From Heptranchias perlo (taxonomy: Eukaryota), in the NCBI RefSeq assembly GCF_035084215.1, contig NC_090325.1:72106001-72170000 (forward strand): a stretch of 64,000 nucleotides of DNA, read 5' to 3'. Below, in pieces: positions 4,921-63,234 of the stretch. Within the stretch, counting starts at the first letter, position 1, and each line of letters starts with the position of its first letter. The position numbers and the translations under genes are program-made. The notes below the pieces were generated by a model that ran no database searches, had not been told where the DNA came from, and saw only the letters and a list, made by a program, of their open reading frames with translations.

Positions 4921-6477
4921 AAATGGGGAATTTAAATTCAATTAATTAAATAAAATCTGGAATTAAAAAAAACAGTATCAGTAATGTTGGCCATGAAACT
5001 ACCGGATTGTCGTAAAAACCCATCTGGTTCACTAATGTCCTTTAGGGAAGAAAACCTGCCATCCTTACCCGCTCTGGCCTATATGTGACTCCAAACCCAA
5101 ATCAACACATCACAGTGGTTGATTCTTAATTGCCCTCTGAAATGGCCCAGCAAGCCACTCAGTTGTACAATCTCGCTACAAAAAGTCATAATAAGAATAA
5201 AACCGGACAGACCACTAGGCACCGGACACGACAAAAGCAAACCAAGCCCAGTCGACCCTGCAAGGTCCTCCTCACTAACACCCGGGGACTTGTGCCAAAA
5301 TTGGGAGAGCTGTCCCACAGACTAGTCAAGCAACAGCCTGACATAGCCATACTCACAGAATCATACCTTTCAGCCAACGTCCCAGACTCTTTCATCACCA
5401 TCCCTGGATATGTCCTGTCCCACCGGCAGGACAGACCCACCAGAGGTGGCGGTACAGTGATATACAGTCAGGAGGGAGTGGCCTGAGGAGTCCTCAACAT
5501 TGACTCCAGACTCCATGAAATCTCATGGTATCAGGTCAAACATGGGCAAGGAAATCTCCTGCTGATTACAACCTACCGTCCTCCCTCAGCTGATGAATCA
5601 GTCCTCCTCCATGTTGAGCACTTGGAGGAAGCACTGGGAGTAGCAAGGGCACAGAATGTACTCTGGGTGGGGGACTTCAATGTCCATCCCCAAGAGTGGC
5701 TCGGTAGCACCACTACTGACCGAGCTTGCCGAGTTCTGAAGGACATAGCTGCCAGACTGGGCCTGTGGCAGGTGGTGAGCGAAGCAACACGAAGGAAAAA
5801 CCTACTTGACCTCGTCCTCGCCAATCTACCTGTCGCAGGTACATCTGTCCATGACAGTATTGGTAGGAGTGACCACTGTACAGTCCTTGTGGAGATGAAG
5901 TCCCATCTTCACACTGAGGACACCATCCAATGTGTTGTGTGGCACTACCACAGTGCTAAATGGGATAGATTCAGAACAGATCTGGCAGCTCAAAACTGAA
6001 TGTCCATGAGGCGCTGTGGGCCATCAGCAGCAGCAGAATTGTATTCCAGCACAATCTATAACCTGATGGCCCGGCATATTCCTCACTCTACCATTACCAA
6101 CAAGCCAGGAGATTAACCCTGGTTCAATGAGGCGCGAAGATGAGCATGCCAGGAGCAGCACCAGGCGTACATAAAAATGAGGTGCCAACCTGGTGAAGCT
6201 ACAACATAGGACTACATGCATGCTAAACAGCGGAAGCAACATGCTAGAGACAGAGCTAAGTGATTCCACAACCAACGGATCAGATCAAAGCTCTGCAGTC
6301 CTGCCACGTCCAGTCGTGAATGGTGGGGGACAATTAAACAACCAACGGGAGGAGGGGGCTCTGTAAACATCCCCAACCTCAATAAAGATGATGTGGAGAT
6401 GCCGGTGATGGACTGGGGTGGACAAATGTAAGGAATCTTACAACACCATGTTATAGTCCAACAATTTTATTTTAAAG

Positions 6478-6514
6478 TCACAAGCTTTCGGAGATTATCT
6501 CCTTCGTCAGGTGA
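6478..6514 (-). ncRNA. Minimal type I hammerhead ribozyme motif (mirror copy)
   Basis: Exact reverse complement of 6531-6567. Confidence 0.8.
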
Positions 6515-6530
6515 GTAGTGAACTCACTAT

Positions 6531-6567
6531 TCACCTGACGAAGGAGATAATCTCCGAAAGCTTGTGA
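6531..6567 (+). ncRNA. Minimal type I hammerhead ribozyme motif
   Basis: TCAC-CTGACGA-A-GGAGA(TAA)TCTCC-GAA-AGCT-T-GTGA: stem I, CUGAnGA core, stem II, GAAA core, palindromic minimal stem III, UH site. Confidence 0.8.
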
Positions 6568-9179
6568 TTTTAAAATAAAATTGTTGGACTATAACCTGGT
6601 GTTGTAAGATTCCTTACATTAATCCTCAATAAAGGCAGAGTTCAGCACGTGAGTACAAAAGACAGGGCTGAAGCGTTTGCAACCATCTTCAGCCAGAAGT
6701 GCCGAGTGGATGATCCATTTCAGCTTCCTCCCGATATCCCCACCATCACAGAAGCCAGTCTTCAGCCAATTCGATTCACTCCACGTGATATCAAGAAACG
6801 GCTGAGTGCACTGGATACAATAAAGGCTATGGGTCCTGACAAAATCCCAGCTGTAGTGCTGAAGACTTGTGCTCCAGAACTAGTTGCGCCTCTAGCCAAA
6901 CAGTTCCAGTACAGCTACAACACTGGCATCTACCCGACAATGTGGAAAATTGTCCAGGTATGTCCTGTCCACAAAAAGCAGGACAAATCCAATCCTGCCA
7001 ATTACCGCTCCATCAGTCTACTCTCAATCATCAGCAAAGTGATGGAAGGTGTCGTCGACAGTGTTATCAAGCGACACTTACTCACGAGTAAGCTGCTCAC
7101 CGGTGCTCAGTTTGGGTTCCGCCAGGACTACTCGGCTCCAGACCTCATTACAGCCTTGGTCCAAACATGGACAAAAGAGCTGAATTCCAGAGGTGAGGTG
7201 AGAGTGACTGCCCTTGACATCAAGGCAGCATTTGACCAAGTGTGGCACCATGGAGCCCTTGTAAAATTGAAGTCAATGGGTATCAGGGGGAAAACTGTCC
7301 AGTGGCTGGAGTCATAAGTAGCACAAAGAAATATGGTAGTGGTTGTTGGAGGCCAATCATCTCCGTCCCAGGACATTGCTGCAGGTGTTCCTCAGGGCAG
7401 TATCTTAAACCCAACCATCTTCAGCTGCTTCATCAATGACCTTCCCTCCATCATAAGGTCAGAAATGGGGATGTTCGCTGATGATTGCACAGTGTTCAGT
7501 TCCATTCGCAACCCCTCAAATAATAAAGCAGTCCGTGCCCGCATGCAGCAAGACCTGGACAACATCCAGGCTTGGGCTGATAAGTGGCAAGTAACATTCG
7601 CACCAGACAAATGCCAGGCAATGACCATCTCCAACAAGAGAGAGTCTAACCACCTCCCCTTGACATTCAGCGGCATTACCATTGCCCAATCCCCCACCAT
7701 CAACATCCTGGGGGTCACCATTGACCAGAAACTTAACTGGACCAGCCACATAAATACTGTGGCTACAAGAGCAGGTCAGAGGCTGGGTATTCTGTGGCGA
7801 ATGACTCACCTCCTGACTCCCCAAAGCCTTTCCACCATCTACAAAGCACAAGTCAGGAGTGTGATGGAATACTCTCCACTTGCCTGGATGAGTGCAGCTC
7901 CAACAACACTCAAGAAACTCGGCAATCCAAGACAAGGCAGCCTGCTTGATTGGCACCCCATCCATCACCCTAAACATTCACTCCCTTCACCACCGGCGTA
8001 CTGTGGCTGCAGTGTGTACCATCCACAGGATGCACTGCAGCAACTCGCCAAGGTTTCTTCGACAGCACCTCCCAAACCCACGACCTCTACCACCTAGAAG
8101 GGCAAGGGCAGGAGGCACATGGGAACAATACCACCTGCATGTTCCCCTCCAAGTCACTCACCACCCCGACTTGGAAATATATCGCCGTTCCTTCATCATC
8201 ACTGGGTCAAAATCCTGGAACTCCCTTCCTAACAGCACTGTGGGAGAACCTTCACCGCACGGACTGCAGTGGTTCAAGAAGGCGGCTCACCACCACCTTC
8301 TCAAGGGCAATTAGGGATGGGCAATAAATGCTGGCCTTGCCAGCGACGCCCACATCCCATGAACAAATTTTAAAAAAGGATTCACATTGCAGCAAAATCA
8401 ACGCAGGTTCAGAAGATTATAATTTTTCAGTTGATAATGCAACCATTGAACAAAAAGGTGCGCTAACAGTAAATGCATATACAATATGAAATTATTTTTA
8501 ACTTGTTTTGCCAATGTTCTTGTGTACATTATAGATTGAATTATTAGACTGCACCAAACAGTATATTACAAAAAGCAGCATTGTAACTACCCTTCCAACT
8601 GTCTCTTGACTTTGCAAACCGTGAGAATCACAAATCCAAAATTGTTAAAATCAGAACATAAGAAAGCATGGAATGAAGAGAAGATCATGTCACTCATCAA
8701 ACCCATTCTTCCAACATGTCTTCTCTTCTATTTTGGGCTTTACTGCATCCATTTAATCTCCCGAGGAAAACTTCGATAAGTTTCTGTCTTCCTCCCATAA
8801 CCTCACAAAAGGTAAATCACGTGAAAGTCTAGAATATCTATCTTTCCATCCTTCCTTGGCAAAACATTTCCAGGATCCCAATCACTCAGGAATTACTATG
8901 TTTCACACAGCAGTAACTGGAAATTCTACCCATGCTGAAGAGATGATGTAACTGGGTAGAGGGGAAGGGTCTTCAGTCTCTAGAACATCTCTCACACCCA
9001 GGCCAGAATTTAGAAGCACAACAACCATGGGAAACTGAGAGAACAAATTAATTTACATGCTTTGGATTACAAACATTTTAATGGGCTACCAAATTTGATA
9101 TACAGGTAGGCCAACTGACTACCAATGAAAACACCTTGGGTTAATTTTGACTTTAGGTGATAGTATAAAACTGGCTGAC

Positions 9180-15774: not shown

Positions 15775-16022
15775 GGGTCCGATATTAGGAGGGCAGCGGG
15801 TGGTCGACTGGGCGTGTGGGTAACGCGCCCAATGAAATCAGTGTGCTCCGCACGGAATCGCAGGCTAATTGGAACCACTTACCTGTGCTTCCGGGTTTCA
15901 CGCTGGAAAGCTGCGCAGTGGGCGGACTGCGCATATGCAGCAAAGTCTGTCAGCTGGAGGAGCCCTATTTAAAGGGGCTGTCCACCAATGCTCCTCCTGC
16001 AGCAAACAACCAATTCTGAACC

Positions 16023-17866
16023 ATGGAGCAGCCCAGAGGGAAGGTTGCCCCAAGATTTTCGGACTCCTCACACCAGGTGCTGCTGGATGGGGTGAGGAGG
16101 AGGAGGGAAATTCTTTTCCTATCCGATGGGAGGAAGTGCCCTCCCTCCACCTCCTCGGCCACCATGGAGGTGGCCGAGGAGGTCACCAGCAGCGGCAATG
16201 TGCCACGAACCTGGGTCCAGTGCAGGAAGAGATTTAATGACCTAACCAGGTCAGCCAAAATGAGTATACTTACACATTCTCCCACACTCCGTCTTCCACA
16301 TCACCTCCACCACCACACATCCCCTTCTGCACTGCCACCACAACACTCTCACATCACTCCTCACATCCACTCAACTATCATCCTCACCTTGCCTGCACGT
16401 ACTCACCGCCTCTGTCCCCATTCGAACACTACCACGCAGCCCAATCCTCATACAATCTCATGGCTATGTTGCACACGCACCCTCCCATGTATCTCCCTCA
16501 CGCTCAACTCCACCCACACCAATGCATGCAGCGGCTCACCATGCAACCATCACTCATTCACGCCTCTGTGTTTTGCCTTGATAGGAGAAGAGATGCCAGA
16601 ACGCCCGGGAGAGGGCACGGACCAGAGGGGGCCCGCCACACCAGGTGGTCCTAACGGACGTGGAGCATCAGGCGTTGGACATCAGCCGCACGCTGGAGTG
16701 CCTGTCCGTGACGGATGCCGAGGCTGGGATTGCACAAACGGCCAGTGACAGAAAGCTAACATTCAGCACTCATGATAGCGAATGATCTTAGCATCACTTG
16801 GCATCTGCAGCACCTCAACATCTGTCCACATGCCTAACATTGCTTTCTGTTCTCTTGCAGGCCCATCTGCGAGTGTCGTGACCATGGAGGGCGATTCCTC
16901 AGAGGACCTGCCGGCCTCTGAGGATCCATTGTCACATCTGAGACAGCCATCCACCAGCGCAGATACACACACCTAGATGGGTCCCCGTCCTCACTTAGTT
17001 GGGCTTGCACATGGTGAGTCACCACGCACATGTGAGCACGAGCAGACCCTGGTGGCAGGGGCAGCCGTGGAGAGTCCGCGTCGGTGGGAGCACTCTTCTC
17101 CAGGCTCTGGTCAGCTGGACCCAGATGCTGAACCCTGGGGGCCAGCTGTGAAAAGGAGAGTCGTCAAGGGGCAGCAGCACATTGCCGAGGTACTGGAACA
17201 GTTGCCACGTGCACTCTCCACAATCGCGCAGAGGATGGAGGAGTCCAACTCCTGCATGAGGGGAATGGTGGCACAGGTACAGGAGGGTATCTAGGCATCT
17301 CTGAGATAGTGTCGCGGGTAGGTGCGGGAATGTCTGCAATGGAGGAAAGGCTAGCCTCCATCGAGCGTCAAGCACGGTTCAACAATGAGTCCATTCAGAC
17401 CCTGACAACGGCCGTTCGGATTCAGGGTGAGCAACATTCTGCCGCCTTAAACAGGCTGACAGATACTTTACAAGTGGCCTTCCAAGGCCTCACACAAGTC
17501 CTCCAAACTGTTGTCCAGCAGGGTGGAAGGAGTGATGTGGGCCTGGGCCACGAGAGGGATGATGGTGAAAGGGGACATGGAAGTGGGGACGCCACTCAAA
17601 GCGCTCCCACGTCTCACCCGTTGCCCCCCTCTCAACCAGTACCCGCAATGCTGCCCCCTCTCCAGGTGGCCGAGTCTGCCCCTGCACAGGTGCAAGTGGA
17701 GCAGTCTTTGGAGGGGCCCTCACGGGCACCGAAACCCAGAGGGCGTCGGCCGAAAGCATCTAATCGGTCAGGGCATGGACAAGAGCAACCTGCCACTACC
17801 TCTGCTGAAGCCACAGAGGTAGCACCATGTAGGGGTTCCCGGAAACGCAAGGCGAAGGTTTTGTGA
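16023..17866 (+). pseudogene. Harbinger Myb/SANT-like DNA-binding protein, 3 exons (16023-16259, 16585-16744, 16861-17866)
   Basis: APRFSD...RREILF...RTWVQCRKRFNDL trihelix; exon 2 RERARTRGGP; basic C-terminus RKRKAK; AATAAA at 17942; first donor degraded to AT; stops in exon 3. Confidence 0.85.
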
Positions 17867-19572: not shown

Positions 19573-19693
19573 CATCTGGCCTGTTAATTATGATGGCACT
19601 CACCCAGGACCCATCTGGCCTGTTAATTATGATGGCACTCACCCAGGACCCATCTGGCCTGTTAATTATGATGGCACTCACCCAGGACCCATC
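19573..19693. repeat. 39-bp perfect tandem triplication
   Basis: CATCTGGCCTGTTAATTATGATGGCACTCACCCAGGACC at 19573, 19612, 19651. Confidence 0.95.
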
Positions 19694-19773
19694 AGGGGCC
19701 TTTTTATAAAATCCAAAATCACTTAACAAGCATAGAGATACTTGGAACACACACACTCAACCATGAGCACTCA

Positions 19774-21880: not shown

Positions 21881-23190
21881 ACAGAAGGAGACCAGTCGTA
21901 GTTTATTCTCCATAATCTTTAATAATTTCTTCTTCAAGTGTTTACCTAATTGCCTCTGATATACCATAATTTACTCATCGTCAATAGCCATTTGATGTAA
22001 TGCAGCTCATATTCTAAAAAGCTTTTGCAAGGAAAAAGCTCTTCTAACCTTCCCCTTTTGGTACTAATGCCTTTGGTACTAATCCTAAACTTATGCCCCC
22101 TTATTTTTTTTAATTTATACTCAGGATGTGGATGATGTTGAACTTATATGCAACAGGTTCGTTTACATGTTCATTTATTGCCTATTCCTAGTTGCCCTGA
22201 AAGTGGCTTGCTAGGCTATTTCAGAGGGCATTAAACATCAGCCATGTGCTGGAAATTAAAGTCATGTATGGGCGAGACCAGATAGGAGTGGCAGGTTCCC
22301 CTCCCTGAGGGGCAGTAGTTGGGTTTTTATGACAATCAGTGGTGATCATGGTCATTTTTTCTGGTGCTAGCGCACAAAATACCAGAACCAGGAAATTACT
22401 TGGAGCTCTTCTCATTTTGCCGGCATTACTTCGCCAGAAGTTTTGCCTGTGTAAACGGGTTCCCACCACTGTTCCCTCTAAGCTACACACGTGCACAACC
22501 ACGCAGCGGTCTGTTGTGTGCTGTGCACTTAATCGTTCCATCGACGCACGTAGTAAAAAGTTCAGCTGAATAAATACATTATTATATTAATTGTAGTGTG
22601 TTCTGTTGTTTAATATTCAAATGCTTGGTTTGGTTGTTTTAAAAAATAATGCAGCCTGATAAATTAAATCAAATAAAACTCCAGGTAAAAAGCAATCAGT
22701 TCAATTTGTTGTTTTAATTTGTTAGGTGTATGAGACCATGATACGGAATCTAGGCATGCACATTTATGGGTAGTCTGCATTGCACCGGTTAGACCAATCA
22801 GAGTAAGTAATTGTTAAGGCAAGGGGAATCATCATCATCATTTATGATTGGCAGTTAACTGAACAGCCTGTCAGACAAGAACGTGTCACATGCAAGTCAA
22901 AGTCACTTGGGGCCTGTAGACGTTCTAGCTGATAACGGCTCAGACGAGCCCGTGAGTCACTGCAACACCTCACTGTCAGACCCATGTTTAAGTGGAAAGC
23001 AATAGCATCAGCCAACAGTGAAGCCAGCGCTAAGAACAGTGGCTGGATGAAATTGTAGAGGTGGAATCTCATGAATCAAGAAGCAAGATCCGTGTACAAC
23101 TGAGGGAGATATTCCAATATAGTGCAGATGTGGGCTTGATCTGCAAAACATGTGCTGGAGCAAAAATATCAGGTGATTTCTCCACTGGCA

Positions 23191-23442
23191 AGAAATGGGA
23201 AGATGAACGGAAGTTAGACCATGTAAAGAGCCATTTATCAAGAAATGGGAAGATGAACGTAAGTTAGACCATGTAAAGAGCCATTTATCAAGAAATGGGA
23301 AGATGAACGTAAGTTCGACCATGTAAAGAGCCATTTATCAAGAAATGGGAAGATGAACGGAAGTTAGACCATGTAAAGAGCCATTTATCAAGAAATGGGA
23401 AGATGAACGGAAGTTCGACCATGTAAAGAGCCATTTATCAAG
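23191..23442. repeat. 50-bp tandem repeat x5 inside the transposase zinc finger
   Basis: AGAAATGGGAAGATGAACG... at 23191, 23241, 23291, 23341, 23391. Confidence 0.95.
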
Positions 23443-24456
23443 CAAATCACATGAATCTGCTGTGGTTGTTCTTAGAAACAGAAATTCTCACCCACTGGGA
23501 TTTTGTTTGAGGAAAATGTTAACAGAAACTGCTGCTGACAGAGAGAATAGAATGGACCTGATAGCGAGACAGTGATCGAAGCCAGATGAAATAAAGATTC
23601 TCATAGACAACGTACTGCTTGGAGTACAAATGAACAACTCCATGTACTCTGTGCAACATACACCCGACCATATGGCTAAATATCTCCAGGTACCAGCGAA
23701 CTGGCATAGCAAAAACTATGTCTTTGAATTTTTGGAATCAATCAACATTGTCGTCCATGCAGAAATTATGTCAGAGATTCGCCAATCTTTATTTCATACA
23801 CTAATTAATTATTGATGAGAGCACGGATATTTCAGTCAGCAAGATGCTTATCATTTATTTTAAGTTCAGGGAAGCTGCTTCTGCAGTGCACAAGACACTT
23901 AGTGTTCGGTGGAATTGTTAAGTTAACTTCTTGCAATGCACTGGCTATTACAACAGCTATCAAAGACTTCTATACTCTGAATCAGCTGGACATGATGAAA
24001 ATGGTGATGTTCACTTCAGATGCTGCTTCTGTCATGCTGGGAAAAAAACAATGATGTTGCCACACAGCTTAAGCAGTCCATTCCACATTTAGTGGAGCAA
24101 CACTGTGTGGCCCATCGAGAAGATTTGGGAATAGTTGATGCCTGGAACAAAGTACCATTGATAAAGGAAATAGAGACATTGCTGAAAACCATTTATACAG
24201 TCTTCTGCAGATCTTCAGTTAGAAAAGGACAATTTGAGGATATTGCAAATATCACAGAATGTGAAGCTGTGTCCTTTCGACCTCTAAATGAAGTGAGGAA
24301 GCTATCGAGATATTTTGCTGTTAGTGCTCTGATGTGCAATTACTATGCTCTTCTTCAATACTTTGAGCATGAAAAGCCAGAGAACAGAGAACAATGACCC
24401 AGTTGCCAAGTATTGCCTGAAGAAGCTCACATTGCACCATAGTGGCATTGAATGAT

Positions 24457-27752: not shown

Positions 27753-29789
27753 TGCACCACAACAAATCAGCCATGAATTTGGCACTGAGAATATTGAAAA
27801 GCTGGTTGATAAATACAGACAAATCCTGATCCTTGGTCAAGTAAGGTCTTCTGGGCAAAACATCATGGATGAGATGGAACTCGTTGTGAGCCAATACAAT
27901 GACTACAAGTACTTAATTACAGAGATGATTGAAACAAAGTCATTGAAAACATTTCAGGACATGGTGACTTTCAGTCTACAAAATGCAGAACGGTACAGTG
28001 TGCTTTCACAACTAGTGGATAAATGTGCAACATTTCAAGCTTCAAACGTTGATTGTGAGCGTGGCTTCAGCCTTATGAATAATATAAAAATGAAATCACA
28101 AAACAGTTTGAAAGAAGATCACCTTGATATGCTTATACGGATCAAATCTCATCTGTCAAGTGATAGAGAAGTAAACCTGGACAAAATATACAAACACTGG
28201 AAGAGAGGGAGAGACAGAAGAGAAAAACATCTGAACCAGAGACAGTCACCCTCTTCTCCATCATCTGGCCTGTCATCTACAGACTCTGGGTCTCAATCAG
28301 GATGTCTCCATTCCTATGGTGGCAGTGTTCACTTCTGAGATTTCTATCACCAGTCTTGTTTAATTAAAAATCCATGACAGTTCGCCTTGTTACAAATATC
28401 CATTACTTTATACATTTGTTCTGTTTGTTATTTACCGTGAATAATGTTTTCTAAAAAAGCTGTTCTATTCAAAGTTGTGATTTTTTTTCCGGTGGTGCAC
28501 ACAGCACAAACCCAAATTCATTCCACACATGGACACAAAAAAAATTAGAGGGAACATAGATCCCCACCATACTTCTGCCGAAGGATTACTGTCTGCTGAC
28601 GGAGAGGGAGCAATTTCAAGGAATTTCCTGATCCAGATTTATTGAATTCAGTTTTGCAATTTGCCAAGGTGGGAGTTGAACTGATGATCTCTGGGTTGCT
28701 AATACAGGATCACCACAAGCAGTGGAAATAATCTTCCACCATTTACTCCCTCAAAACCCATCAACCCAAGCAGGACTCTCCAAAGAAGCTGCTGTGGAGG
28801 TAGGAGGAGCAGGAGTGCTCTCCGGAATCCATAGTATTCCTCTCCTGCTCCAAAATTGTAGTGGGCTGAATATCTTCTGGAATGGGGCAATAAGTAATGC
28901 AATGTGATTTTTGACTCACTACCGCTCCACTGCTGCTCGGAAATTGGGATGAAAATTGGCATCGGTGTCTTTCCTCATCTCAATTTGAGTTCATTTTTTT
29001 TTTAAAAAAACACAAATGCGTTGAACTTTGAAAATAAACAAAGGCTTTAATTATCACTAATGCTATACTCAGAGTGCACAAACATTCTAATTATTGATAT
29101 CTGTGGCTTACAGAGATGGACAGAAAGCAAGAGATATACTTCCAGGAACTAATTACAAAACATCAAATTTATTGTTTGCAGAGGTCAGAAAGTCACAAAT
29201 TAATGCTGCCAGACCTGAGACTCTCCCACCCAGTGCTGTCAGACCCAAGCCCTCCCCTCCTCTCACTGTTAACAGACACTGCGGGGTAATTTTAACCTCC
29301 AAGAATGGGTGGGTGGGTAGTGAAAATCATAGGTTTTTGTAGTGCGACTGCAACCTGGTACCAACGTGGCCACTTCCCGATTTAAGTGGGTGCGTTTGAA
29401 TGCGCGCACGCAGCCGAAACTCAGAAGTGGCGTCCCCAATTACTGCCAGCAGGTGAGTACTTAGCGCATCAATTAAGGTCATTGAGGTAGTTCAGGTAGG
29501 TATTTTTTAATTGCTTCTTAAACAGAAACAAATTTAACTTCTCCTGCACGGGTTTCCCGGGCCTCCTAAATCTCGCCTGTGAAACAGAGGCGAGTTTCAG
29601 CCAATATTGATTTGGGCTTTTAAGCCTGTGATTGGCGTATCTCAATTAAAGCTCAGGTATTGCAGCTGGTCTCTCAGACAAACTTGAGACTGAGGGTTCT
29701 TGTGTTGAGACTGAGGGTTCTTGTGTTGAGACATCTTTAACAAAACATTGGAGCCTCTCAAACTGACAAGATCAGGCTGAGGGGGCACA

Positions 29790-30677
29790 ATGGATGTATT
29801 CCAGAGGACGAGGAAAATGACCATCCACAGCAGCCACGTCGTGCTGTGTTGGGATCTGCAGGTGCACAAGAGAGAGGTGCACAACACGGATCTGGAGAAC
29901 AGCAGAGAGGGGAGCAATGTATTGCCCGTCGCAGTAAAAGTAACCGTTGCCATCAATTTCTTTGCCTCTGGATCCCTCCAGAGTGCCACTGGTGACATCT
30001 CTAGGGTCTCTCAATCGTCTGTGTATGCCAGGGGCATCAGATTACGTGAACTTCCCCGCGACGACAACAGCCAGAATGAGCGAGCAGTGGGTTTTGCCCC
30101 TCTGGCTGATTTCCCACGGGTGCAGGGTGCCATCGATTGCGCACTCGTGGCAGTCCGAGGACCACCACATGAACCAGGAGGCTTCATAAACTGAAAGAAC
30201 TATCACTCCATCAATGCACGACTGGTGTGCAACTACAGGAAGAAATTTCTGCAGGCGTGCGCCAGATTCCCTGGCAGCTGTCAGTATGCGTTCGTTTTGA
30301 GCCATTCCAACATTCTAGACCTCTTCCAAGCAGGAGACAGACTTAAGGGCTGGCTCGTTGGAGACAAGGGATACCCCCTGCAAACATGGCTCATGACACC
30401 TGTGAGGAAACTCACCAATGAGGCACAAGAGCAATACAACCAGAGCCTCATGACCACCAGGTGCGTCATTGAGCAAGTCATCGGTATGTTAAAGATGCTC
30501 TTCAGGTGCCTGGATAGGTCTGGAGGTACCCTTCGTTACTCGCAAGCAAGGGTGTCCAGTACAATTGTGATGTGCTGCGTCCCGCACAACATAGCGCAGC
30601 AGAGAGGATTAGAGGCGCAGGAGGATGAAGGCGCTCATCAATCACCCTCTGTTGATGACAAGATTGAAGAAGAGTAA
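29790..30677 (+). pseudogene. Harbinger (HARBI1-like) DDE nuclease
   Basis: VAVKVTVAINFFASGS, VQGAIDC, WLVGDKGYPL, TRCVIEQVIGMLK; internal deletions and TGA at 30192. Confidence 0.9.
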
Positions 30678-57237: not shown

Positions 57238-59972
57238 ACTGTTCCATCACCATCCCTGGGTATGTCCTGTCCCACCGGCAGGACAGACCCACCAGAGGTG
57301 GCGGTACAGTGATATACAGTCAGGAGGGAGTGGCCTGAGGAGTCCTCAACATTGACTCTGGACCCCATGAAATCTCATGGCATCAGGTCAAACATGGGCA
57401 AGGAAACCTCCTGCTGATTACCACCTACCGTCCTCCCTCAGCTGATGAATCAGTCCTCCTCCATGTTGAGCACCACTTCGAGGAAGCACTGGGAGTAGCA
57501 AGGGCACAAAATGTACTCTGGGTGGGGGACTTCAATGTCCATCACCAAGAGTGGCTTGGTAGCACCACTACTGACCGAGCTGGCCGAGTCCTGAAGGACA
57601 TAGCTGCTAGACTGGGCCTGTGGCAGGTGGTGAGCGAACCAACACGAGGGAAAAACTTACTTGACCTCGTCCTCACCAATCTACCTGCCGCAAATGCATC
57701 TGTCCATGACAGTATTGGTAGGAGTGACCACCGCACAGTCCTCGTGGAGATGAAATCCCGTCTTCGCACTGAGGACACCATCCAACGTGTTGTGTGGCAC
57801 TACCACCGTGCTAAATGGGATAGATTCAGAACAGATCTAGCAGCTCAAAACTGGGCATCCATGAGGCGCTGTGGGCCATCAGCAGCAGCAGAATTGTATT
57901 CCAGCACAATCTGTAACCTCATGGCCCGGCATATTCCTCACTCTACCATTACCAACAAGCCAGGGGATCAACCCTGGTTCAATGAGGAGTGTAGAAGAGC
58001 ATGCCAGGAGCAGCACCAGGCGTACCTAAAAATGAGGTGCCAACCCGGTGAAGCTACAACTCAGGACTACATGCATGCTAAACAGCGGAAGCAACATGCT
58101 ATAGACAGAGCTAAGCGATTCCACAACCAACGGATCAGATCAAAGCTCTGCAGTCCTGCTACATCCAGTCGTGAATGGTGGTGGACAATTAAACAACTAA
58201 CGGGAGGAGGAGGCTCTGCAAACATCCCCATTCTCAATGATGGCGGAGTCCAGCACGTGAGTGCAAAAGACAAGGCTGAAGCGTTTGCAACCATCTTCAG
58301 CCAGAAGTGCCGAGTGGATAATCCATCTCAGCCTCCTCCCGATATCCCCACCATCACGGAAGCCAGTCTTCGGCCAATTCGATTCACTCCACGTGATATC
58401 AAGAAACGGCTGAGTGCACTGGATACAGCAAAGGCTATGGGCCCCGACAACATCCCAGCTGTAGTGCTGAAGACTTGTGCTCCAGAACTAGCTGCGCCTC
58501 TAGCCAAGCTGTTCCAGTACAGCTACAACACTGGCATCCACCCGACAATGTGGAAAATTGCCCAGGTATGTCCTGTTCACAAAAAGCAGGACAAATCCAA
58601 TCCGGCCAATTACCGCCCCATCTGTCTACTCTCAATCATCAGCAAAGTGATGGAAGGTGTTGTCGACAGTGCTATCAAGCGGCACTTACTCACCAATAAC
58701 CTGCTCACCGATGCTCAGTTTGGGTTCCGCCAGGACCACTCGGCTCCAGACCTCATTACAGCCTTGGTCCAAACATGGACAAAAGAGCTGAATTCCAGAG
58801 GTGAGGTGAGAGTTACTGCCCTTGACATCAAGGCAGCATTTGACCGAGTGTGGCACCAAGGAGCCCTAGTAAAATTGAAGTCAATGGGAATCAGGGGGAA
58901 AACTCTCCAGTGGCTGGAGTCATACCTAGCACAAAGGAAGATGGTAGTGGTTGTTGGAGGCCAAGCATCTCAGCCCCAGGACATTGCTGCAGGAGTTCCT
59001 CAGGGCAGTGTCCTAGGCCCAACCATCTTCAGCTGCTTCATCAATGACCTTCCCTCCATCATAAGGTCAGAAATGGGGATGTTTGCTGATGACTGCACAG
59101 TGTTCAGTTCCATTCGCAACCCCTCAGATAATGAAGCAGTCCGAGCCCGCATGCAGCAAGACCTGGACAACATCCAGGCTTGGGCTGATAAGTGGCAAGT
59201 AACATTCGCGCCAGATAAGTGCCAGGCAATGACCATCTCCAACAAGAGAGAGTCTAACCACCTCCCCTTGACATTCAACGGCATTTCCATCGCCGAATCC
59301 CCCACCATCAACATCCTGGGGGTCACCATTGACCAGAAACTTAACTGGACCAGCCATATAAATACTGTGGCTACGAGAGCAGGTCAGAGGCTGGGTATTC
59401 ACCTCCTGACTCCCCAAAGCCTTTCCACCATCTACAAGGCACAAGTCAGGAGTGTGATGGAATAATCTCCACTTGCCTGGATGAGTGCAGCTCCAACAAC
59501 ACTCAAGAAGCTCGACACCATCCAAGATAAAGCAGCCCGCTTGATTGGCACCCCATCCACCACCCTAAACATTCACTCCCTTCACCACCGGCGCACTGTG
59601 GCTGCAGTGTGCACCATCCACAGGATGCACTGCAGCAACTCGCCAAGGCTTCTTCGACAGCACCTCCCAAACCCGCGACCTCTACCACCTAGAAGGACAA
59701 GGGCAGCAGGCGCATGGGAACAACACCACCTGCACGTTCCCCTCCAAGTCACACACCATCCCGACTTGGAAATATATCGCCGTTCCTTCATTGTCGCTGG
59801 GTCAAAATCCTGGAACTCCCTTCCTAACAGCACTGTGGGAGAACCGTCACCACACGGACTGCAGCGGTTCAAGAAGGCGGCTCACCACCACCTTCTCAAG
59901 GGCAATTAGGGATGGGCAATTATTGCCGGCCTTGCCAGCGACGCCCACATCCCGTGAACGAATAAAAAAAAA
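57238..59972 (+). mobile_element. Young copy of the tRNA-headed LINE family, 5' truncated in the endonuclease
   Basis: 647-aa ORF 57522-59465 plus 59481-59909; poly(A) end. Confidence 0.95.
57522..59909 (+). pseudogene. APE-RT polyprotein with a premature TAA at 59463
   Basis: GDFN, SDH, NYRPI, QFGFR, GVPQGS, FADD; 15-bp in-frame deletion near 59400. Confidence 0.88.
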
Positions 59973-60439
59973 GGATAGATGCAGGGAGGCTATTTCCCCT
60001 GGCTGGGGAGTCTAGAACCAGGGGTCACAGTCTCAGAATAAGGGATAGGGCATTTAGGATTGAGATGAGGAGAAATTTCTTCACTCAGAGGGTGGTGAAT
60101 CTTTGGAATTTTCGACCCCAGAGGCTCAGTCAGTGAGTACATTCAAAACAGAGATCGATAGATTTCTCGATGTTAAAGGCATCAAGGGATATGGCAGGAA
60201 AATGGTGTTGAGGTAGAAGATCAGCCATGATCTTTTGAATGGCAGAGCAGGCTCGAGGGGCCAGATAGCCTACTCCTGCTCCTGCTCCTATTTCTTATGT
60301 TCTTATGTTCTTAATTTCTTCAGGACTTCTCCACTCAGCCTCCGTAATTTCGATGTGGAGATGCCGGTGATGGACTGGGGTTGACAATTGTAAACAATTT
60401 TACAACACCAAGTTATAGTCCAGCAATTTTATTTTAAAT

Positions 60440-60476
60440 TCACATGCTTTCGGAGGCTTCCTCCTTCCTCAGGTAA
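60440..60476 (-). ncRNA. Hammerhead motif in the PLE terminal repeat (probably mutated)
   Basis: TTAC-CTGAGGA-A-GGAGG(AAG)CCTCC-GAA-AGCA-T-GTGA; the conserved U16.1 reads A. Confidence 0.7.
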
Positions 60477-60707
60477 ATGTTCAGGAGCTCCTCGAAGCCT
60501 ACGCATTTATACATATAGAACAATACATGATGTTTACAGAATGCCCCTGCAACTGCCCGTTGCCAAGGCAATCACCGTGTTCAGACAGAGAGGTGTCACC
60601 TGCAGAACCCCCGAATACACATTCAACAAAAAAACAAACAGGAAAAAAAAACAGAGAGAGGCAGAAACATCCGGAAGGCAGAGAAAGCCAGCAAATGACC
60701 CATTATA

Positions 60708-62300
60708 TTAAAAACAGATAACATTTGTTCCCTGGTGGGGTAACGTGTAGCGTGACATGAACCCAAGATCCCGGTTGAGGCCGTCCTCATGGGTGCGGAA
60801 CTTGGCTATCAATTTCTGCTCGACGATTTTGCGTTGTCGTGTGTCTCGAAGGCCGCCTTGGAGTACGCTTACCCGAAGGTCGGTGGATGAATGTCCATGA
60901 TTGCTGAAGTGTTCCCCGACTGGGAGGGAACCCTCCTGTTTGGCGATTGTTGCGCGGTGTCCGTTCATCCGTTGTCGCAGCGTCTGCATGGTCTCGCCAA
61001 TGTACCATGCTCTGGGGCATCCTTTCCTGCAACGTATGAGGTAGACAACGTTAGCCGAGTCACAGGAGTATGAACCATGCACCTGGTGGGTGGTGTCCTC
61101 TCGTGTGATGGTGGTATCTGTGTCGATGATCTGGCATGTCTTGCAGAGGTTACCGTGGCAGGGTTGTGTGGTGTCGTGGACGCTGTTCTCTTGAAAGCTA
61201 GGTAATTTGCTGCGAACGATGGTCTGTTTGAGGTTGGGTGGCTGTTTAAAGGCGAGTAGTGGAGGTGTGGGGATGGCCATAGCGAGGTGTTTGTCCTCAT
61301 TGATGACATGTTGAAGGCTGCGGAGAACATGGCGTAGTTTCTCCGCTCCGGGGAAGTACTGGACGACAAAGGGTACTCTGTTGGTTGCGTCCCGTGTTAG
61401 TCTCCTGAGGAGGTCTATGCGATTTTTTGCTGTGGCCCGTCGGAACTGTCGATCGATGAGTCGAGCGTCATATCCCGTTCTTACTAGGGCGTCTTTCAGC
61501 GTCTGTAGGTGTCCATCGCGTTCCTCCTCGTCTGAGCAGACCCTGTGTATTCGCAGGGCCTGTCCATAGGGGATGGCCTCTTTGACGTGGTTAGGGTGGA
61601 AGCTGGAAAAGTGGAGCATCGTGAGGTTGTCCGTGGGCTTGCGGTAGAGTGAGGTGCTGAGGTGCCCGTCTTTGATGGAGATTCGTGTGTCCAAGAAAGA
61701 AACTGATTCTGAGGAGTAGTCCATGGTGAGCTTAATGGTGGGATGGAACTTGTTGATGTTATCGTGTAGTCTCTTTAGTGATTCCTTGCCGTGGGTCCAT
61801 AGAAAGAAAATGTCGCCGATGTATCTGGTGTATAGTGTTGGTTGGAGGTCTTGTGCAGTGAAGAAGTCCTGCTCGAACTTGTGCATGAAAATGTTGGCGT
61901 ATTGGGGTGCGAATTTGGTCCCCATGGCTGTTCCGTGTGTTTAGGTAAAGAACTGGTTATCGAAGGTGAAGACATTGTGATCCAGGATGAAGCGGATGAG
62001 TTGTAGGATGGCTTCCGGAGATTGGCTGTTGTTGGTGTTGAGTATTGATGCTGTCACAGCGATGCCGTCATCGTGGGGGATACTGGTGTACAGTGCCGAG
62101 ACATCCATCGTGGTGAGAAGTGTTCCTGGTTCAACTGGTCCGTGGGTACTGAGTTTTTGTAGGAAGTCTGTAGTGTCGCGACAGAAGCTGGGGGTTCCCT
62201 GTACGATGGGTTTCAGGATGCCCTCGATGTATCCAGAGAGGTTCTCACACAGGGTTCCGTTGCCTGATACGATGGGACGTCCGGGTGTGTTTGGCTTTGT
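60708..62300 (-). pseudogene. PLE reverse transcriptase / GIY-YIG endonuclease
   Basis: 405-aa ORF plus upstream in-frame RT behind a TAA near 61942; catalytic YxDD reads YIGD. Confidence 0.9.
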
Positions 62301-63234
62301 GTATTTCTAATTTCAGTAGAAGTTCAGTGGAAATCCATTTACGTGCATAAACGGAAATATGTTATGGAAATTTTCTACTGAAAGATTTCCACCAGAAACT
62401 TCAACCAGTTTTTTTCCTCTTTCAGATGCCAATAGAACTGCTGTATATTTTTATCTGACAATAAGCAATAAGAAGAACAAGAGCACTATGTCCAATTGCT
62501 GTCAGAAATGGAAAGGCTTGGTGTAAATCACAGTGCGAAACTATAGTGGCAAAGAGGATTAATGTGAGACTCAAGTGTAACAATTATTGAAACAACTACT
62601 CACCAGAAACTGGAGAACCACAGCAAATCTTTATGAAAAGTATGATGGTAACTTATTGCAAGAAATGGGAGTATGGGGTGAATTGCTGCAAAAAGCAGCA
62701 CCGCAGTACATCAATAGAAATGATGACAACCTTTCAAAGAATCTCTGAGAAATGGAAATGTTACTTCCAATAACAAAAGCATAACAACAAACCGTGCCAT
62801 GATGTTGATGAAATCTAACAAATCACTACAAGAAATAATAGCATTTAGGGAGTGCCCACAGGCAACGAGAGAGTCAGGAATGAAGTAATGCCTGAAAAAA
62901 CCTTGATGAAATTAGAACATTGTTGTTAATTGCTGTAAGAAAATATAGGGCTGATTTTCCTCTGCCTTGCACCAAAATAGCAAACAAAATATGGGTCAAT
63001 GGAGAGGAAAAATGGGTGCTAATCCTTTGGTCTCACTTTGCTCCTGCATGGCATTGAGAATGAACTGCATCTATGGCTTTTCTGATGTTTGCACCTGACT
63101 GTGACTGAAGAAGATGCAGCAAAATAAATGTATTTGTTTCTTCTGTACTTGTTGCAGAATGCTCTTAGTATTTTATACTTAGCGATGGAGGCCATGTTTA
63201 GTACAGTACCAGCTGCTCAAGTGGTGGTATAGCC

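Follow-up and report, generated by a model that had tools for sequence, protein, structure and literature searches.

Introduction

In the parts of the PLE literature that we could draw on, insertions are described as carrying an inverted, 5′-truncated copy, a one-sided tail of 30–40 bp and a TSD (PMC8557442, PMC3846280, PMC2377424), and self-priming has been proposed as the source of the inverted copies (PMC3846280, available text). A CX2-5CxxC linker before the endonuclease defines the Neptune/Nematis group in the available sections of PMC8557442, and, in those of PMC2377424, transcription of Penelope in D. virilis is driven by a TATA-less promoter and begins within the upstream pLTR. Minimal hammerheads (min-HHRs) occur in pairs in Schistosoma, about 100–700 bp apart on opposite strands, according to the accessible portion of PMC4209133. 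For Poseidon PAc of Anolis, both strands are cut and extended in vitro, two RT start sites bound the tail, and the template is uncleaved RNA (PMC11167929). The population of short, stub-like copies described here bears on the origin of inverted pLTRs and one-sided tails in PLEs, and on the role of the hammerhead.

The window analysed here is a 64,000-nt stretch of the Heptranchias perlo genome (NC_090325.1, positions 72,106,001 to 72,170,000). It contains a hairpin that we regard as probably a single insertion of a coding PLE, in which two short, head-to-head pLTR copies were built at the landing site.

Architecture of the hairpin and its surroundings

The hairpin lies within a LINE, and its parts, with their flanks, are as follows.

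5383 to 8378, plus strand: broken APE-RT LINE, the recipient of the hairpin insertion
6375 to 6387, plus strand: left TSD, 13 bp, identical to the right TSD at 12 of 13 positions
6388 to 6424, minus strand: PLE tail, 37 nt, present on the left arm only
6425 to 6521, minus strand: left arm, a pLTR piece corresponding to element positions 38–134, with a templated match extending to 135 (= 6522)
6478 to 6514, minus strand: minimal type I hammerhead whose predicted cleavage site falls between 6482 and 6481, with the architecture given in the available part of PMC4209133
6522 to 6523: junction or loop AC, unique in the genome, in which C6523 is templated by neither arm
6524 to 6620, plus strand: right arm, an inverted pLTR piece without tail, element positions 134–38
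6531 to 6567, plus strand: minimal type I hammerhead whose predicted cleavage site falls between 6563 and 6564
6622 to 6634, plus strand: right TSD, preceded by one extra A (6621)

The earlier note on this DNA had reported two 97-bp inverted arms with a 2-nt spacer and a 13-bp near-TSD within a LINE, and both descriptions hold, with three mismatches between the left and right arms (at 6449, 6477 and 6515, 97 nt each). The tail can be traced in a full-length element (locus L149), where it runs into the ATG of an ORF beginning MATIDTT and ends at the start codon. As RNA, the hairpin is predicted to fold at −170.9 kcal/mol (z −28), and none of 200 shuffles was equally stable. An Rfam scan of the hairpin gave no match to a hammerhead model; its match to MIR841 (77 bits against a gathering score of 200) was rejected as a hairpin artefact. 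A splice-donor-like CAGGTGAG on the antisense strand was likewise set aside, and taken to be the complementary sequence of stem I and CUGA.

An uninterrupted relative of the host LINE occupies 57339–59465 of the window, with the empty site near 58221–58243, and at another locus (L124) what is apparently the same LINE family has also received a copy of the hairpin's PLE subfamily. Elsewhere in the window there are short tandem arrays at 1788–2095 (47-bp units), 19573–19696 (39-bp) and 23139–23495 (50-bp), as well as open frames at 29781–30677 and 16020–16748 which we take to resemble remnants of a Harbinger-type transposase and its Myb/SANT-like partner.

The arms derive from a coding PLE

Both hairpin arms are pLTR of a coding PLE of Neptune/Nematis type. 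At three loci (L121, L124 and L149) the arms lead on into ORFs for RT and GIY-YIG, with a CX4CXXC linker in the translations, and we group the family with Neptune/Nematis because this linker fits the definition given in the sections of PMC8557442 cited above. The full-length copy at L149 is a partial tandem, with a match to RVT_1 at E 2e-10 and to GIY-YIG at E 9e-4 (20 bits, against a cut-off of 22.6). The features of an EN+ PLE insertion are all present: a pLTR with hammerhead, a one-sided tail, a TSD and an inverted truncated copy. The family is large: exact matches in the 3.25-Gb genome number 6,692 for the 50-nt tail sequence, and 368 matches were counted for a 40-nt subfamily marker. The window itself holds a coding relative:

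60352 to 62306, minus strand: 5′-truncated coding PLE of a sister subfamily, encoding the RT C-terminus, CX4CXXC linker and GIY-YIG, with an in-frame stop near 61941

Two further loci deserve mention in their own right. L419 (C1:22729500-22737000) is a PLE in partial tandem; its open frame spans 902 codons, and its inverted arm measures 2.5 kb. At G000:C1:147697164-147736045, ten same-strand matches to the hammerhead marker of one PLE subfamily are spaced 1.6–7.2 kb apart within 39 kb, for which a tandem cluster and a segmental duplication are the alternatives.

Hairpins are common, junctions mostly differ

The earlier note took the hairpin for a non-coding unit mobilised by PLE proteins; the PLE origin and insertion by PLE proteins are supported, whereas a self-propagating unit is not. 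It had also named inversion points that differ from copy to copy as the mark of one-off products, and this is what a search for copies with the same junction in other flanks returned: the 30-nt junction of the window hairpin occurs once in the genome. Across 70 short hairpins, the centre strings were distinct in 68, a count that point mutations inflate. In a search with the whole element, all 40 candidates scored (of 1,204) matched over near-full length at 93% or better, which has the look of a family; such a search favours copies shaped like the query, and junction-blind searches gave a different picture. The best 30 matches mostly have different centres, though a perfect AATT palindrome is common to about five of them, in different flanks. 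Microhomology would generate such a junction repeatedly; rare re-mobilisation may also occur.

On C1, 95 tail copies were taken in position order (from the first 96 of the 100 listed, one locus giving no result; four arms extended beyond the locus). The shortest tail arm ends at 61 nt and the longest at about 2,600, in a continuum into ORF-bearing copies. Simple inverted pairs make up 66 of the 95, and in 25 (about 26%) both arms end at 116–140, so that scaling 25 in 95 to the 6,692 tail matches gives probably more than 1,500 short hairpins like the window copy in the genome. From the unique junction and the continuum of arm lengths together, it follows that the hairpin shape is common yet rebuilt at each insertion. 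Descent from a non-coding master, which would leave a common junction in different flanks, is not supported by the junction and arm-length data, and head-to-tail tandem units of the retrozyme kind are absent, a single head-to-head unit lying between the TSDs. It is therefore highly improbable that the element is a non-autonomous, ambisense ribozyme hairpin, transcribed and re-mobilised as a unit in the manner of SINEs, retrozymes or viroids: the near-full-length matches, the similar short hairpins in the C1 sample and a few shared junctions are in its favour, and the unique junction, the continuum into coding copies, the missing promoter-like box and the folding energies described below count against it. 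For the window copy this model is largely refuted.

Hammerheads inside the hairpin

Each arm does contain the intact minimal hammerhead that the earlier note had described, with CUGACGA and GAAA cores, a 4-bp stem I and an AGCU palindrome, and stem II has 5 bp in both arms. Across 20 hand-picked variants, which are related sequences and from which the structure itself was drawn, 97.8% of cells are compatible with the pairing, against 27–49% in slid controls. Double changes across these variants affect the pair that closes stem II (A-U, G-C and C-G), and the compensatory change that had been noted against the PLE at 60440, from A-U to G-C, is real. The hammerhead of that homologue (60440–60476) also carries U16.1>A (at 60445), and its core is broken because of this change.

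Within the hairpin the predicted ribozymes appear to have little opportunity to form. Whichever strand is read, transcription reaches the antisense arm ahead of the ribozyme, which leaves no folding window for the latter. Forcing the hammerhead fold in the full hairpin RNA costs 64 kcal/mol on the plus strand and 58 kcal/mol on the minus strand, and still 50–55 kcal/mol when the transcript has only just completed the ribozyme. A folding switch or a viroid-like rod, both of which had been suggested for this locus, is therefore unlikely, the antisense arm outcompeting the ribozyme by about 58–64 kcal/mol, and the hammerheads, passengers of the pLTR, are predicted to be locked inside the hairpin. 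RNAcofold predicted no AGCU-paired active dimer, although nearest-neighbour folding is no test of such a dimer.

The near-perfect 97-bp duplex, present in what are probably more than 1,500 copies, raises a different potential role, in which hairpins of whatever origin would act, through read-through from the host or from LINEs, as a dispersed source of dsRNA and endo-siRNA against the PLE pLTR. We consider this quite unlikely, as the insertion mechanism yields the same structure without selection.

One tail, one TSD and two related arms

The inverted copies are asymmetric. One tailed and one tail-less arm were found in all 43 scorable inverted copies of a tail-blind sample (four more were not scorable), in 111 of 113 copies selected by their tail (the other two having two tails), and in 12 of 13 scorable copies selected by the ORF start, a set with one locus in common with the earlier sample and whose single exception, L421, has no tail. 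In four of four ORF-start copies, a tailed inverted arm correctly predicted that the far end would be tail-less. As a separate observation, two outward-facing tails lie 16 nt apart, tail-to-tail, at L274 on C3, perhaps as the result of two insertions at one site.

The TSD measures 12–14 nt in 83 of 108 copies, and both outer junctions typically show 0–3 nt of microhomology. Either arm may be longer than the other by hundreds of nt, and the tail-less arm is often the longer (265 versus 1166, 762 versus 1380). At the same time the two arms are clearly related: their lengths correlate (rho 0.76, and 0.80 outside the end peak), and 30 of 45 pairs carry an identical haplotype in both arms against 4.6 in shuffles. 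Such correlated, haplotype-sharing arms count against a clean two-template model; they would fit two rounds of copying from a single RNA, or a pair of RNAs transcribed from the same source locus. In only four of the 45 pairs do the arms differ at two or more diagnostic sites. At L066 and L081 (C1, 3.87 Mb and 11.9 Mb) the two arms carry different subfamily haplotypes in stem II, a pattern that suggests either that two RNAs served as templates or that the template was switched.

Two primers, one at each of the start sites demonstrated in vitro for PAc, are favoured because of the tail asymmetry, the TSD size, the microhomology and the finding that either arm may be the longer. A rather unlikely alternative keeps the same one-off PLE origin and has the inverted arm arise by self-priming and fold-back, or through stalling of RT at the 5′ edge of the hammerhead. 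Self-priming is a published hypothesis (PMC3846280, in its available text), and the correlated arm lengths, the haplotypes and private variants shared between arms, and the occurrence of palindromic junctions are all as fold-back would have them. Fold-back is disfavoured because folding back a tail-less cDNA makes no tail, and it sits poorly with tail-less arms that often exceed tailed ones by hundreds of nt, with microhomology to RNA sites at both outer junctions, and with the four pairs whose arms differ at diagnostic sites. The evidence on stalling lies in the positions of the arm ends.

Arm ends and a putative RNA start

Arm ends are far from evenly distributed in the C1 sample: 2.7% per nt fall at 126–140 and 1.1% at 116–125, as against 0.15–0.35% per nt in the bins 57–115 and 141–600. 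Of 94 arms in subfamily S, 37 end at 131–139 once three small indels are set aside; the upper edge is sharp and few ends lie beyond it. No pile-up of cDNA ends occurs at the ribozyme cut in the C1 sample, where only one of 86 ends falls at 91–98, and ribozyme-cut RNA is thereby ruled out as the main template 5′ end. Stem II and the AGCU palindrome were also considered as annealing sites that might set the junctions, and were rejected, as the ends peak at 126–140 and not at 97–109.

Promoter-like calls were made with the TATA and Inr consensus sequences. In several subfamilies a TATA-like box lies 36–42 nt upstream of CUGA and about 30 nt from the arm ends. Among 24 short arms of the GAGCG subfamily, 14 end at 135–136, where an Inr-like site lies 30 nt away from TATAAAT. 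This subfamily has four extra nt between hammerhead and TATA, and in GAGTG only three of 15 short arms end at 135–136. This difference between the two gives a Fisher p of 0.02, and other splits give 0.03–0.17, depending on hand calls, with a pattern that hides ends below 130, GAGTG ends called by hand and mixed parents of the GAGTG subfamily; a link between the end shift and the 4 nt is only suggestive. In a copied-cap test, the first inserted base was C in 19 of 49 (p 0.25).

Judged by these positions, the short arms are likely to be run-off products from the 5′ pLTR, with ends that would mark the RNA start. An RT stall would account for an end peak directly past the hammerhead, but the ends tend, if weakly, to track the TATA/Inr spacing. 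The hairpin ends before it reaches the TATA-like box, and for this reason the window copy is likely a dead end.

A model for short inverted insertions

Parentage, junction diversity, tail asymmetry, TSD size and end positions are established here, and we lean towards twin initiation by the PLE as the process behind them, in which each end of a staggered cut would use one tail start site and the commonest product would be a run-off cDNA resembling a strong-stop. Specifically, the GIY-YIG endonuclease would stagger its cut by about 12–14 nt. Each 3′ DNA end would then pair with the element RNA over 1–3 nt, one at the end of the tail beside the AUG, while the second would pair about 37 nt upstream of it. 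Reverse transcription from both primers would proceed within the 5′ pLTR and run off where the RNA begins, about 30 nt downstream of the TATA-like box, so that the cDNAs would measure about 135 and 100 nt. End joining would finally connect the two cDNA ends.

This run-off model predicts an RNA start at 131–136, one primer per tail site and an uncut RNA template. If it is correct, the thousands of short hairpins record, like fossils, where PLE transcription starts, and would argue against both self-priming and ribozyme-cut templates.

Comparison with known systems

The layout of an inverted truncated copy, a tail and a TSD is already published, to judge from the available parts of the papers cited above, and as a single locus the window hairpin is ordinary. 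Like canonical EN+ PLE insertions as described there, it has a head-to-head inverted pLTR, a tail at one end and a TSD, and its relatives include partial tandems and palindromic junctions; it differs in that its arms are only about 100–135 nt and lack an ORF. Neither the pile-up of ends at the TATA/Inr site nor the strict one-tail rule appears in the portions of PMC8557442, PMC3846280 and PMC2377424 available to us. Our literature search found no description of twin priming or of strong-stop run-off cDNA for PLEs, and closed papers, supplements or Repbase/Dfam entries may hold one.

The hammerheads resemble the metazoan PLE min-HHRs as presented in the accessible part of PMC4209133, with a short stem I, an extra nucleotide before G10.1, a G10.1-C11.1 pair and palindromic 15.2–16.2. 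The same source gives the wider spacing of the Schistosoma pairs, whereas only 16 nt separate the two motifs of the window hairpin, whose ribozymes are predicted. The closest biochemical parallel is PAc: the lack of a cDNA-end pile-up at the cut agrees with uncut RNA as its template in vitro (PMC11167929). The PAc ORF starts inside the hammerhead and its tail lies 111–118 nt into the ORF, in contrast to the tail described here, which ends at the AUG; inverted products were outside the scope of that study (PMC11167929).

Finally, non-LTR retrozymes, as far as the accessible text of bioRxiv 10.64898/2026.07.22.740005 describes them, are also non-coding, PLE-derived and equipped with a type I hammerhead. 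They form head-to-tail tandem units, whereas the window hairpin is a single head-to-head insertion with a unique junction. Same-sized palindromes with TSDs may be rebuilt at each insertion, and need not form a MITE- or SINE-like family.
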